Positions 47,312 to 51,437 of a DNA stretch of 51,437 bases are shown here, one piece after another. Positions within the stretch are counted from its first letter, which is position 1, and each line of letters begins with the position of its first letter. Source of the DNA: Candidatus Omnitrophota bacterium (GTDB lineage Bacteria; Omnitrophota; Gorgyraeia; Gorgyraeales; Gorgyraeaceae); contig JAHIYJ010000021.1 in NCBI GenBank assembly GCA_018814825.1, positions 1 to 51,437 of the forward strand, written 5' to 3'. Made by a program: the position numbers and the translations under genes. The notes under the pieces are model-generated. The model was not told the DNA's origin. It worked only from the letters and a program-made list of their open reading frames with translations, and ran no database searches.

Positions 47312-47677
47312 ATGCACCTAAGTATTGATAATAGGCTCTTTGCCCGCGTGGACGGGGAACTTGGAGTCAGGTACAGCCCGCAGGGCAGCGACAGGGAATA
47401 CTGCACCACGACCAAAAATATCAGCGGAGGAGGGGTGAGGATGTCCCTGCTGAAAAAGCTGGAGCCCGGGACCGTGCTTGACCTTGAGATATTCAAATAT
47501 AACACTGACCTTAAGGCGGTATGCAGAGGCAAAGTCGCCTGGATATGGGGCGAGCCCATGAGCAGGGAAAAAAATCAGCTCTTTGAGGCGGGTATAAGTT
47601 TCCTTAATCAGCAGCTTCTGTATATAGGGAGGCTTATAAATCATCTGGAGACGCAAAATACCGGCAATATACTATGA
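47312..47677 (+). CDS. Stand-alone PilZ domain protein 7
   Basis: NRLFAR, NISGGG, GKVAW, GISF. Confidence 0.88.
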   Translation: MHLSIDNRLFARVDGELGVRYSPQGSDREYCTTTKNISGGGVRMSLLKKLEPGTVLDLEIFKYNTDLKAVCRGKVAWIWGEPMSREKNQLFEAGISFLNQQLLYIGRLINHLETQNTGNIL

Positions 47678-48033
47678 AACTTCTATCAAGATTATTCGAG
47701 TTCACGAGAAAAGAAAAAGACATGTTTGTCAATGACCGCAGGGAGGCGAAGAGATACGGGATTCCTCTGAAGCTGAACTACTCAGACCCGCTCACCAAGA
47801 TTCACGGAGAATCTATCGCCAGGGATATATCGAGGCATGGCCTTAGGTTCCCCGTGAGTTCTCTGATACCAAAGGGGTCCGCGCTTGAGCTCGTAATAGA
47901 AGACCCTTACAGCAACGTGCCCATAGTTTCAAGGGCAAAGGTCACCTGGGCGGAAAAGTTCGTAGCGGGCGATGACGCTGAGGACACCTTTTACGAGATA
48001 GGGGTAAGGCTTCAAAAAAAAGGTCTTTATTGA
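47674..48033 (+). CDS. Stand-alone PilZ domain protein 8
   Basis: DRREAKR, DISRHG, AKVTW, GVRL. Confidence 0.88.
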   Translation: MKLLSRLFEFTRKEKDMFVNDRREAKRYGIPLKLNYSDPLTKIHGESIARDISRHGLRFPVSSLIPKGSALELVIEDPYSNVPIVSRAKVTWAEKFVAGDDAEDTFYEIGVRLQKKGLY

Positions 48034-48039
48034 CAGATA

Positions 48040-48771
48040 ATGAAAAAGTTCTTTAGCCTGGTCCTTATTATAATAATACTGACAGCCGGAGCGGTCATAG
48101 CCCGTGACGCGATTATAAAGAGCTTTGCAGAGAAACTGGTCTTCGCCACCACAGGCATGAAGATGACCATAGGCCAGCTAAAAATGAGCGTCCCTAAGAC
48201 GTTCGTTAGCATAAAGGACATGACAGTCATGAACCCTGCTGGTTTCAAGGACAGGGTAATGCTGGACATGCCTGAGGTATACGTTGATTACAGCCTCCTC
48301 TCCCTGCTCAGAAAAAAGGTCCAACTGCGGGAACTACGCATAAACCTGAAAGAGTTTATGGTGGTAAAAAATAAAGACGGTAAGACAAATCTCGAATTTA
48401 TAAAACGCCTCAAAGATAAAAAGAAGAGCCCCAGTGAGCAAAAAAAGAAACCTGCCTCCGCGCCCGGAATGGAGATTGACACGCTCTCCCTTAAAATAGG
48501 AAAAGTCATATATAAGGACTATTCCGGCGGCGGAAATCCAATAGTGTCCGAATATAGCGTAAACATAGCCTCAAATTATAAAAACGTGAACAACCCTGAG
48601 GATCTTGTCAGGATCATAGTGGCAAAGGCCCTGATGAACACGGCGCTCGGCCGGCTTACGGATTTCAACCAGCTGAAAGACATGCCCTTAAACACGCTGG
48701 AACAGGGTAAAAACATCCTCAAAAACACAGCGGATGACCTGAAAAACATCATAAAATCGCCTTTTAAATAA
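48040..48771 (+). CDS. AsmA-like N-terminal domain protein
   Basis: N-terminal anchor, V.NPAGF, VVKNKDGKTNL, IDTLSLKIGKV pattern. Confidence 0.65.
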   Translation: MKKFFSLVLIIIILTAGAVIARDAIIKSFAEKLVFATTGMKMTIGQLKMSVPKTFVSIKDMTVMNPAGFKDRVMLDMPEVYVDYSLLSLLRKKVQLRELRINLKEFMVVKNKDGKTNLEFIKRLKDKKKSPSEQKKKPASAPGMEIDTLSLKIGKVIYKDYSGGGNPIVSEYSVNIASNYKNVNNPEDLVRIIVAKALMNTALGRLTDFNQLKDMPLNTLEQGKNILKNTADDLKNIIKSPFK

Positions 48772-49052: not shown

Positions 49053-49617
49053 GACATTTCTATTAACGCTGATAAAGATATCTATATTGGCGTGCTTTAT
49101 TACAGGTTTATTCAACGTGGGGTATGCGCAGGACGAGCAGGGGCGCGTGCTCCTTATTCGGGAAGCGCAGCAATTTCAAAACAACACGGTTGCTGTGGAA
49201 GGCTACCTGATGGACAATATCCTGGAAGTCAAGGTAACAGCCAGGATGATGCACGCCACAAAGCCAAAGATATACAACGCGCTTGTGGTAGGGTCGCGTC
49301 TGGGGCGATTGGAGATCGAATCTAAAGAGATCCTTCTTGCCTCAGTAGAAGAGGAAGAGCCTTACCCGACATCCAGAAAAGACAAGGGTTTTGTAAGTTT
49401 CAGCGGCGGCAAAAAGAACAAAAGGGCAAGGGGGACACTGACAAGAGAGTTGTTGGTGTTTAAGATCCCGCGAGACAAGGTAGTAAAGGGCAAAAGATAC
49501 AGGCTTTGGGTCCAGATCACGAGCTTACAGCAAGGCGAAAAATACAAGACCTTTAAATTCGATCTTAAGGATCTGTATGAAAAAATGTCCAAAGTGCAAC
49601 AGGGAAATACACAATAA
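49045..49617 (+). CDS. Hypothetical exported protein
   Basis: GGAGG SD; signal peptide ending GYA-Q. Confidence 0.7.
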   Translation: MNKTFLLTLIKISILACFITGLFNVGYAQDEQGRVLLIREAQQFQNNTVAVEGYLMDNILEVKVTARMMHATKPKIYNALVVGSRLGRLEIESKEILLASVEEEEPYPTSRKDKGFVSFSGGKKNKRARGTLTRELLVFKIPRDKVVKGKRYRLWVQITSLQQGEKYKTFKFDLKDLYEKMSKVQQGNTQ

Positions 49618-49990
49618 AGCGTTGAGTTGTCCTTATTGCGAGCCCGAGCATGCAAATAAGACCATTGATAAGAGGGTCTTTCCCAGGCATGACTATAAGT
49701 GCCTAGTGGCCTATAAAATGGCGAAAGACCCTGACGCGCCATGGAAAGAGGCCATGGCTGAGAACATAAGCATGGGTGGCATGCTCTTTAAGACACAGGG
49801 AAAACTGGCAAGCTCAACCAGGATCACTGTAAGTTTCGAGGCCTTTTTAGGCCAATTCATCCAGATACAGGCCAAGGTGGTCGAGAGCGAAGAGGATTTC
49901 GACGGCTATAATACAAGGATCAAGTTTATCAACTTTGACGCAGAAACAAAAAATAGACTAAGAGCCTTCCTCGACCCCCTAAAACCCTAA
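49577..49990 (+). CDS. Zinc-ribbon-PilZ fusion protein 9
   Basis: MKKCPKC...CPYC, then DKRVFPR, NISMGG, AKVV, IKF. Confidence 0.85.
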   Translation: MKKCPKCNREIHNKALSCPYCEPEHANKTIDKRVFPRHDYKCLVAYKMAKDPDAPWKEAMAENISMGGMLFKTQGKLASSTRITVSFEAFLGQFIQIQAKVVESEEDFDGYNTRIKFINFDAETKNRLRAFLDPLKP

Positions 49991-50004: not shown

Positions 50005-50997
50005 ATGAATATTGACGCATTATTCTTAGGCGGTACGTCCATTGACCTTATCCAGGAGAGGCGTTACCCTGAAAAGTTCTCAGCCTCAGTAGGCGGCTCT
50101 ATAACCAATTCCGCCATTATATCAGCGAAACTAGGCCTTAAGACAACCCTATTAAGCAGGATAGGCAAGGACCCCATGGGTGACTTCGCTATCCGGACTT
50201 TAAAATCATACCAGGTCAATACCAGTGGCATAATACAGGACCCTGGTATCAGGACACCCTTAGCAATAGCTAAAGTAGATAAATCAGGTAATTCAGTCTA
50301 CACGTTTTATAAAAACCCGGCCAGTTTATCCATTGTCCCGTTAAAAACAGCCCCAAAAAGCCTTTTAGATAGCTGTAAGTTCCTTCATTTCGGCTCAAGC
50401 TTTTCCTATCAAAAAGAGACATTCCAGGAGGCCTTAAAATACATAAATTACCTTAAAAAAAGGCGCGTATTTGTATCTTTTGACCCAAACCTCAGGCCGT
50501 ATGTTATAAAGGACAAAATGGAGGCAAGAAAACGGGTCCTAAGGCTCCTTAAACTGGTAAACATGGCGAAATTAAGCGGTATGGACCTGGAATTTCTGAC
50601 AGGCTGTAAAAACCCTGAAAAAGGCCTGAAAAGGCTCAAAAAACTAGCCAAATGCGAGGTGATCCTGACACTTGGCCCAAAAGGCTCAAGATATCTGGAT
50701 AAAAAAGGTAACCTAATAAAAGTCCCAGCCTTTAAAGTCAAAGTAGCAGACACAATAGGCGCAGGAGATGCCTATACAGCAGGGATACTTTATAAAATAG
50801 CCAAACTAGGGAAAAGGGAGGTATTTGACAATATAAGGCCTGCCATGGTCTTCGCCTCGGCAGTATCTGCCATAATCTGCACCAAGCGAGGCGCAAACCA
50901 AGGATTAAAAGATATAAAACAGATTAAGACATTTCTTGCCAAAAGGGAGTGCGAGTCCGCGGTGTTGACAATGAAAAGATTACGGAAGAATTACTAA
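50005..50997 (+). CDS. PfkB family kinase (fructokinase-like)
   Basis: GGS..N.A...AKLG, IGKDPMG, SFDPNLRP, TLGPKG, DTIGAGDAY. Confidence 0.92.
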   Translation: MNIDALFLGGTSIDLIQERRYPEKFSASVGGSITNSAIISAKLGLKTTLLSRIGKDPMGDFAIRTLKSYQVNTSGIIQDPGIRTPLAIAKVDKSGNSVYTFYKNPASLSIVPLKTAPKSLLDSCKFLHFGSSFSYQKETFQEALKYINYLKKRRVFVSFDPNLRPYVIKDKMEARKRVLRLLKLVNMAKLSGMDLEFLTGCKNPEKGLKRLKKLAKCEVILTLGPKGSRYLDKKGNLIKVPAFKVKVADTIGAGDAYTAGILYKIAKLGKREVFDNIRPAMVFASAVSAIICTKRGANQGLKDIKQIKTFLAKRECESAVLTMKRLRKNY

Positions 50998-51052
50998 ATA
51001 ATATCATATTCTCCTGCCCAATATTCCCCTGTTTCCACCTCACTGTTACACC

Positions 51053-51081
51053 TTGACTTTTAGCTATATATAGTATATACT
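51053..51081 (+). promoter_or_regulatory. Sigma70 promoter of the long leader and downstream ORF
   Basis: TTGACT-17 nt-TATACT. Confidence 0.8.
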
Positions 51082-51117
51082 TATCATAGGGTTTATAAAA
51101 GTATTAAGTATAGATAG

Positions 51118-51291
51118 TTAGAGAAATTTGCCATGGGTTTCTAAGTTTACATAGCCGGGTAACTGAAACCTGGCTATTTTATTAAATTGAGGTTATTTTC
51201 TCGGGCATTGCCTCTTGTTTGAATTTGAATAGGGTCCTCGCTCCCATGGCAGAGGATTGTCCTAGATGAATTCAAAGAGACATGCCCGGGA
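51118..51291 (+). ncRNA. Candidate structured cis-regulatory leader RNA with loop-loop complementarity
   Basis: Long hairpin 51199-51291 whose apical loop CCCATGGCA (51243-51251) is the exact reverse complement of TGCCATGGG (51129-51137). Confidence 0.55.
51151..51183 (+). terminator. Terminator-like hairpin inside the 5' leader
   Basis: ATAGCCGGGT-7 nt-ACCTGGCTAT followed by TTTATT. Confidence 0.6.
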
Positions 51292-51310
51292 TATTCTAAG
51301 GTGTGAAAAT

Positions 51311-51437
51311 ATGTTAAGCTGGCAAAGAGGAAAAACCAGGATATTTATGAAGGCGGTTGCGCTTGTGGTAGTGCATACATTTTTCCTTACAAGCACAGTC
51401 TATCCTGCGCCTTCCACCAGGAGCCTCTTTAAGAACA
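51311..51437 (+). CDS. N-terminus of an exported protein, truncated by window end
   Basis: AAGGTG SD; MLSWQRGKTRIFMKAVALVVVHTFFLTSTVYPAPSTRSLFKN is open to the edge, with a basic then hydrophobic signal-like segment. Confidence 0.7.
   Translation, partial: MLSWQRGKTRIFMKAVALVVVHTFFLTSTVYPAPSTRSLFKN

Follow-up and report, generated by a model that had tools for sequence, protein, structure and literature searches.

A conserved structured leader RNA with terminators and complementary hairpin loops precedes giant-protein genes in one family of Candidatus Omnitrophota

Intrinsic-terminator attenuators, such as the riboswitch, T-box and leader-peptide platforms, combine a strong promoter with a GC-rich hairpin and a U-tract ahead of the start codon, and their genes are reached only by read-through. 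In antisense kissing-loop or countertranscript attenuation (ColE1 RNA I/II, R1 CopA/CopT, pT181, pIP501), a small hairpin shares 7-9 nt of loop complementarity with a terminator-ended leader made from the opposite strand, and a plasmid replication gene is controlled. HK022 put and Bacillus EAR are promoter-proximal structured RNAs ahead of terminators in very long transcription units, RfaH and LoaP leaders join a leader element and a terminator before long units for surface or secreted products, and the Listeria RNAs SreA and SreB are leader fragments released by premature termination. Giant genes of tens of kilobases are a recognised curiosity of the Omnitrophota. Here we describe a leader in front of a gene of this kind, within the last 385 bases of a 51,437-nucleotide stretch (the window) that is the entire contig JAHIYJ010000021.1 of a Candidatus Omnitrophota bacterium (genome G000, 1.30 Mb in 103 contigs). 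It belongs to a structured-RNA family that had not been described before and that our searches place in a single Candidatus Omnitrophota family, and it probably controls how much of the enormous gene behind it is transcribed. The reading that we favour, and hold to be somewhat better than an even bet, is that of a 5' leader of a giant exported or anchored protein mRNA, attenuator in type, in which a small hairpin (hairpin 1, hp1) kisses the loop of a long hairpin.

An earlier note, made from the bare letters of the contig, had listed a promoter, two complementary motifs, several hairpins, a Shine-Dalgarno sequence and an ATG at this end, and all of them are present at the positions given there. 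Reading along the + strand, a sigma-70-type promoter, TTGACT-17 nt-TATACT (51053-51081, with TTGACT at 51053-58 and TATACT at 51076-81; 10/12 consensus matches), is followed by the A/U-rich initial transcribed segment TTATCATAGGGTTTATAAAAGTATT (51082-51105), which is conserved in relatives and recurs in the short leaders of paralogues. Hp1 (51118-51144) consists of the stem TTAGAGA/TTTCTAA (51118-24 with 51138-44), whose arms covary, and a 13-nt loop ending in GCCATGGG (51130-51137; the 9-mer TGCCATGGG spans 51129-51137). The earlier note had seen this weak hairpin and its motif correctly, but the register drawn there, AGAAATT/GGTTTCT, would place two motif G inside the stem; the family register TTAGAGA/TTTCTAA keeps all of the motif in the loop. 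Then come the intrinsic terminator T1 (51151-51183), recognised in the sequence as a 10-pair hairpin at 51151-51177 followed by TTTATT and having a covarying helix, and a long hairpin of ~93 nt (51199-51291; fold -42.3 kcal/mol, 76.5 bits with its covariance model R1) that carries CCCATGGCA in its apical loop (51243-51251). A Shine-Dalgarno-like AAGGTG (51298-51303), identified from sequence only, precedes the start of a gene of the giant-protein family, exported or anchored (MLSWQRGKTRIF...), which extends from the ATG at 51311 to 51437, where the contig end cuts it; its N-terminus aligns with relatives. The AAGGTG is not conserved in relatives, in some of which the start codon lies 9-15 nt past the U-run.

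Relatives share this order of promoter, A/U-rich segment, variable stretch, hp1, T1, spacer, long hairpin and start codon. The R1 set holds 42 homologues of the long hairpin, 40 of them distinct, and 37 of the 42 belong to leaders behind a promoter; TTGAC(A/T)-N17-TATACT occupies the same place in 37/37 of these. The hp1 loop of relatives ends in GCCAUGGG, abutting the 3' arm, and the apex of their long hairpin reads CUCCCAUGGC(A/G). From the long hairpin to the start codon there are 9-170 nt in most leaders, and more in L086.

Comparison at the sequence level demonstrates that the leader is conserved, that it holds three covarying helices and a terminator in every case, and that the complementarity of its loops is kept. 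The noncoding DNA of 51040-51437 matches 19/24 other family genomes vs 0/16 outside the family. R1 matches 30/38 family genomes, including 20/22 of the high-quality ones, and R2, the model of hp1 plus T1, gives strong matches (E < 1e-7) in 26/38, always at these leaders. In the class sample R1 matched 1/145 non-family genomes (G108); the matching sequence, which resembles the leaders of genus g7, lies on a short contig, and the bin is 8% contaminated. The phylum sample yielded 1/147, a weak match in G202 that we rejected as a leader: it lies inside an open reading frame (ORF), has none of the leader features and looks like chance. Nor is the element a multi-copy repeat, a possibility that the earlier note had kept in view, as the leader region is single-copy in its own genome and relatives hold one to three leader copies per genome. 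Scans of metagenomes and species genomes with an N-terminal protein profile brought in, besides several paralogues, no more than four further leaders (L066, L067, L077, L081), and the sample for loop covariation remained small.

The gene upstream varies. It encodes a PfkB kinase in the window (Pfam) and a dCTP deaminase in L012 (Pfam) and, judged by ORF reading, in most relatives, and further loci have other upstream ORFs (outside the Pfam run). Since the upstream neighbour differs between loci, the leader travels with the giant gene. The best match of window positions 50900-51437 in Rfam 15 was GibS (E = 4.1), whose 18.5 bits fall far short of its cut-off of 115, and a snoRNA came next at E = 9.9; the loci of 15 relatives gave just one tRNA at E <= 0.1. 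This agrees with the earlier statement that no known riboswitch is recognisable here. The new cis-regulatory RNA proposed in that note is supported in kind by the conserved leader, the covariation and the family restriction, while we infer the transcript ends, the pairing itself and the regulatory effect.

The resemblance of the ORF to very large exported Omnitrophota proteins, put forward in the earlier note, is borne out by the relatives. Their downstream ORFs share the N-terminus MLxWQxGKxRIF...AAPSxRSLFKNK (alignment A2), and homologues with this N-terminus, from Candidatus Omnitrophota, extend from 1,063 to 15,948 codons. Complete relatives have 4,565, 2,535, 1,991, 1,275 and 1,063 residues, and others are still open at the locus end after 6,090, 6,518, 3,997 and 2,979 residues. 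The longest is a single uninterrupted ORF of 15,948 codons in G003 (C45:5162-53005, joining L154, L155 and L017), with the leader at its 5' end and a long-hairpin terminator at its 3' end. Giant-protein genes of this phylum are recognised by their Omnitrophota origin, an N-terminal signal or anchor and ORFs of many thousands of codons, and the relatives, with their conserved N-terminus, fit this description. The window ORF itself runs off the contig end from its ATG at 51311, and the contig from the source run stops earlier, at 51326. When its continuation was sought by tblastn with the giant proteins of relatives, nothing came up but a methyltransferase piece on C10 and, on C31, the paralogue of 2,020 residues, which is complete. 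The conserved N-terminal ~600 residues have no relative in Pfam or PDB, nor one named in Atlas; the 4,565-residue member carries ARMT1-like and methyltransferase domains.

Folding and covariation agree on the helices. No shuffle folds as stably as the long hairpin (-42.3 kcal/mol as given above, z = -5.3, 0/200), and the stability of the whole leader is just mildly above shuffles (z = -2.6). Across the 42 homologues 93.8% of cells in the long hairpin are paired and 17/24 pairs changed on both sides; 0/500 shuffles reach any of the five measures used, and slid controls are at most 57.5% paired. On its 5' side the sequence is more conserved than pairing alone demands. The T1 helix is 87.8% paired, with both sides changed in 7/10 pairs. 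For hp1, the best stem formed with the own arm averages 5.65 pairs over 37 distinct sequences vs 4.80 +/- 0.17 for permuted arms, and 0/2000 permutations are as high. These arms are as diverse as UAGAGA/UCUCUA, GUAGA/UCUAC, UUUGAGG/CCUCAAA, ACAGGGG/CCUCUGU, AGGAUA/UAUCCU and UAUAGG/CCUAUA, and the CATGGG of hp1 is invariant in alignment A5. The hp1 test was anchored on the motif with arm matching, the covariance-model alignment A6 having carried register errors from its MAFFT seed (59% paired). Relatedness of the sequences inflates all covariation tests used.

As in the intrinsic-terminator attenuators, a GC-rich hairpin with a U-tract stands between a strong promoter and the start codon, and read-through is needed. 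T1 is present in 32/37 leaders. The five leaders without it (L100, L111, L112, L115, L118) all have U6-7 straight after the long hairpin, and at least one intrinsic-terminator-like element separates promoter and start codon in 37/37. A run of at least 5 U also directly follows the long hairpin in 13 of the 32 leaders with T1; in the window T1 is present and the U-tract after the long hairpin is weak (GGGAUAUUCUAAGG). T1 and the long hairpin are 6-37 nt apart in 30/32 leaders, and in L028 the ATG stands directly behind the T1 U-tract. A second promoter would find no room in spacers of this length, so that the gene can be reached only by read-through. Unlike in known attenuators, no antiterminator helix that would compete with T1 was noticed by eye, neither a leader peptide nor features of tRNA binding or of a known aptamer were found, and Rfam gave no match. 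Many of the leaders have two terminator-like elements, the second being a hairpin of ~70-95 nt with a conserved loop.

The loops are the feature that recalls countertranscript control. In the window TGCCATGGG (51129-51137) and CCCATGGCA (51243-51251) are exact 9-nt complements. The match claimed in the earlier note is therefore present, but it is not beyond chance in the window alone: a perfect inverted 9-mer at least 20 nt apart occurs in 89/1000 dinucleotide shuffles of the 223-nt leader (8.9%). Since such a match is within chance in a single sequence, its significance comes only from conservation in relatives. Hp1 occurs in 36/37 leaders (not in L111), and all 36 have at least 7 contiguous complementary loop nucleotides (range 7-11); in 33/36 there are at least 8, and just 7 pairs are found in L022, L100 and L118. 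The conservation in homologous leaders that had been set beforehand as a test of the idea is thus found in 36/36, with one compensatory change. This change belongs to genus g2 (G003, G019), where GUCAUGGG faces CCCAUGAC: a mirrored double change, at position 2 in hp1 and position 7 in the long hairpin, breaks both palindromes and keeps the inter-loop pairing. The G005 lineage (L015, L077) has a one-step G.U intermediate. Together, the one compensatory and the one wobble event lend thin support, as judged from the sequences, to a pairing of the loops.

Outside the core the loops have G...G vs C...C, so they are complements, not copies. The loop duplexes are predicted at -14 to -19.5 kcal/mol, and for isolated loops the fold model partly pairs some motif bases within the own loop. 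A ninth pair was set aside: U before GCC accompanies A after GGC in 8/8 cases, and G would pair with U too, so it is uninformative. Complementary hairpin loops are the hallmark of antisense kissing-loop control, and as in those systems 7-9 nt of complementarity join a small hairpin to a terminator-ended leader, with a short terminated RNA as a possible effector. Unlike in the plasmid systems, both partners lie on the + strand behind one promoter, so that the opposite-strand arrangement is not found, and the gene served is a giant one on the chromosome instead of a replication gene on a plasmid.

We propose that transcription would begin from the near-consensus promoter at 51053-81 and yield an RNA with the A/U-rich segment, hp1 displaying GCCAUGGG, T1 and the ~93-nt hairpin displaying the complementary CCCAUGGC. 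Only polymerases passing T1 would transcribe the gene, and in many relatives they would also have to pass the U-tract after the long hairpin, which would make the leader an attenuation gate. A stop at T1 would release an RNA of ~100 nt with hp1. The loops of hp1 and of the long hairpin may then kiss within a read-through transcript (in cis), between such a transcript and the short RNA (in trans), or in both ways. Where, as in some relatives, a further long hairpin closes the same giant gene, it may be among the partners. Of the two modes suggested in the earlier note, a loop-loop contact across the terminator and a terminated short RNA in trans, either may hold. Since the long hairpin is terminator-like in many loci and a 3' terminator in some, the contact would most plausibly tune termination at, or stability of, the transcripts that bear it, and with this the amount of full-length giant mRNA. 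Such a terminated leader fragment would be like SreA and SreB in having a loop complementary to sites elsewhere, among them hairpins where the gene ends. It would differ from them in that the predicted target belongs to its own transcription unit and that no domain for sensing a ligand was recognised.

Five of the 42 R1 matches are not ordinary leaders (L121, L027, L119, L122, L026). L121 lies 6 nt past the stop of the 15,948-codon ORF of G003, with U8 and the loop CCCAUGAC as in the gene's own leader; its identity of 70-74% with both leader hairpins of g2 indicates that the variant is shared by descent. L027 and L119, which are identical, follow by 9 nt the stop codon of an ORF that is at least 2,536 codons long. 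In G007, the genome of L027, hp1 and T1 are on another contig, directly before a giant-family gene that has no long hairpin at its 5' end, and the two contigs may carry one gene or two. L122 follows the stop of an ORF homologous to giant proteins by 104 nt and is 59% identical to the leader hairpin of its own genome. L026, in G014, is what remains of a leader: this genome has neither the giant gene nor an R2 match, and the loop has decayed to CCCUAGAG. Tentatively, and with more doubt than confidence, we consider that hp1 or the ~100-nt T1 RNA has two partners, the copy in the leader and a dedicated long terminator hairpin with which the same giant mRNA ends.

A number of observations weigh against a kissing-loop attenuator and its 3' extension. 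The CCAUGG core is palindromic, so that 6 of 8 complementary positions follow automatically if both loops keep it; the loops hardly vary, and the case for pairing is built on a single compensatory event, whose three hairpins are related by descent, plus one wobble lineage. The fold model of the window partly pairs the GGG of hp1 and the GGC of the long-hairpin loop, and the 3' copy L122 keeps CUCCCAUGGC with its CCC hidden in a stem of the predicted fold. Inspection of the leader alignment by eye, with no formal search, showed no conserved antiterminator that could pair with the T1 arms. No R1 match was obtained in 8/38 family genomes, two of which are 92% and 97% complete. Some leaders are also incomplete: L111 has no hp1, and L057 keeps hp1 and T1 with a long hairpin reduced to its basal stem; among genes of the same N-terminal type, L060 lacks the elements and L061 has only remnants. 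At six complete shorter genes no 3' long hairpin was found. Finally, where transcription starts, that it stops at T1 and that a short RNA is made are themselves predictions.

The position of the element and the length of the genes would also fit processive antitermination by an RNA, of the kind known from HK022 put and Bacillus EAR, in which nascent hp1, with or without the long hairpin, would bind polymerase and make it resist T1, the second U-tract and internal terminators of a gene of 20-48 kb, the leader terminators filtering out unmodified polymerases. The layout is like that of put and EAR, with a structured element just after the promoter and just before one or two terminators in 37/37 leaders, and the genes served are exceptionally long. 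A protein-based system such as RfaH or LoaP, which shares with this locus a leader element and terminator before a long unit for a surface or secreted product, is not evident: the check for NusG paralogs suggested in the earlier note turned up none, as PF02357 gives a single NusG-family match in G000 (92.1% complete) and no second specialised gene, a situation that an RNA-only mechanism would fit. However, no Rfam match to any described antitermination RNA was obtained, neither sequence nor structure gave a match to put or EAR, and the conserved inter-loop complementarity, which has no counterpart there, points to a contact between RNAs rather than of RNA with polymerase. Complete genes of only 1,063-1,275 residues carry the leader, and the 2,020-residue paralogue of the same genome does without it, and we regard antitermination as unlikely. 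It is quite improbable that the loops serve as protein-binding sites, for example of a dimeric RNA-binding regulator of CCAUGG, instead of being mutual partners. Such a regulator would account for two nearly invariant loops with the palindrome CCAUGG in each, for a long-hairpin 5' side more conserved than pairing requires and for the loop being kept in long hairpins distant from hp1, but the loops are reverse complements and not one word (G...G vs C...C outside), the mirrored g2 change breaks both palindromes yet keeps the pairing between loops, and no candidate protein was identified.

Promoter, hairpin and terminator also form the typical layout of a small-RNA gene, and in G007 the long hairpin and hp1 with T1 are on separate contigs. 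If hp1 and T1 were an independent small-RNA gene upstream, acting in trans on this and perhaps other targets in the ordinary way and without attenuation, the giant gene should have room for a promoter of its own; the spacers are too short for one (6-37 nt in 30/32, and in L028 the ATG abuts the T1 U-tract), so that the gene needs read-through, and hp1 without T1 was counted against this idea in five leaders, which leaves it only a small chance. The same motifs can be read at the DNA level, as inverted repeats of 8-11 bp (GCCATGGG / CCCATGGC) that are recombinase sites of an inverton, where flipping T1 would turn the gene on. T1 is indeed flanked by inverted repeats, the compensatory change would be equally expected of them, and surface-protein genes are often phase-variable. 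Yet T1 points forward in 32/32 leaders, which come from a wide range of genomes and metagenomes. In the five others nothing of the kind lies between the repeats, and an inversion there would only break two covarying RNA helices. The repeats lie exactly within hairpin loops, their mismatch in the G005 lineage is a G.U pair in RNA, no recombinase is found among the last five genes of the window, and the contigs of three DNA runs, with X2 and X3 covering just part of the kinase gene, show as weak evidence no strand-changing joints. An inverton is accordingly a far-fetched explanation.

Accessible passages of the literature on these giant genes describe no promoter, terminator or leader. The giant-gene preprint 10.1101/2023.11.21.568195 mentions no promoter, terminator, untranslated region or antitermination in the portion of its text that was accessible, and promoter, terminator, leader and NusG are all absent from the accessible text of the preprint 10.64898/2026.06.07.730766. 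As far as its accessible parts go, PMC10066038 annotated RNA motifs with Rfam only. Full-text searches for Omnitrophota riboswitches or Omnitrophica RNA motifs, which covered articles without their supplements, found nothing relevant.

Paralogous genes of a second class (14 loci), among them the complete 2,020-residue gene on C31, have the same promoter and A/U-rich 5' segment with no hp1, T1 or long hairpin. In its own genome the A/U-rich segment is found behind a promoter only at the window leader and at the C31 paralogue, and a third copy lies on C80 on the reverse strand. The promoters of these paralogous exported-protein genes are strongly conserved, spacer included (TTGACAGGAAAACGTTTACGTGGTATACT), and the initial segment is AGTTTATAAATATATTT as in the window leader; they were seen at G000 C31:11740-17911 and C80 near 6549 (minus) and in the relatives L043-L055, L063, L068-L072, L075, L084 and L085. 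The 2,020-residue gene on C31 sits behind a prolyl-tRNA-synthetase-like gene. Promoter and A/U-rich segment, being shared, may reflect a common regulator or a special promoter class for the gene family.

Further observations concern the leader and its surroundings. At window position 51214 the contig from the source-type run has T for C; the partner is a G of the long hairpin, so the pair survives as G.U. An in-frame ATG at 51266 was dismissed as a start since it is not conserved, and the apparent conservation of a peptide KRHARD is that of the 3' arm of the long hairpin. Tiny ORFs from the AUGs within both loop motifs are not conserved either, and pairing of the conserved 5' segment with the 5' arm of the long hairpin came to just 4 bp by eye. 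Palindromic intergenic elements of ~35-45 nt, AAGTTGACA...TGTCAACTT, recur in leader spacers and upstream of promoters (L029, L040, L041, L050, L059) and look like a family-specific repeat of the REP (repetitive extragenic palindromic) type. L130 and L119 of G042 have hp1 plus T1 and long-hairpin sequences identical to those of L028 and L027 of G007, with nearly identical flanking ORFs and in different genera, which suggests a mixed bin or recent transfer; G042 additionally has the separate full leader L090. Upstream of the leader in the window are two small PilZ-domain proteins (47674-48030 and 49577-49987; Pfam E = 3e-8 and 2e-11) and, also just upstream, an AsmA/DUF748-like protein (48040-48768). 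A figure legend of the giant-gene preprint, in the portion accessible, mentions conserved pilZ genes near giant genes (10.1101/2023.11.21.568195). Signalling by cyclic di-GMP (c-di-GMP) may be linked to the giant-gene locus.

The leader adds a covariation-supported RNA family from an uncultured phylum. For the giant genes of Candidatus Omnitrophota it provides a testable handle on transcription: the promoter is strong, one or two terminators have to be read through, and a predicted, conserved RNA-RNA contact may in some genomes involve the 3'-end terminator too. Should loop pairing indeed control termination or stability, plasmid antisense control would have an unusual counterpart here with both partners on one strand. 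If, in addition, the 3' hairpins take part, an RNA-only form of 5'-to-3' communication or termination control would have evolved for giant genes, whose far end lies ~48 kb downstream in G003; pairing of the two ends could mark or stabilise finished transcripts or feed back on initiation-proximal termination.

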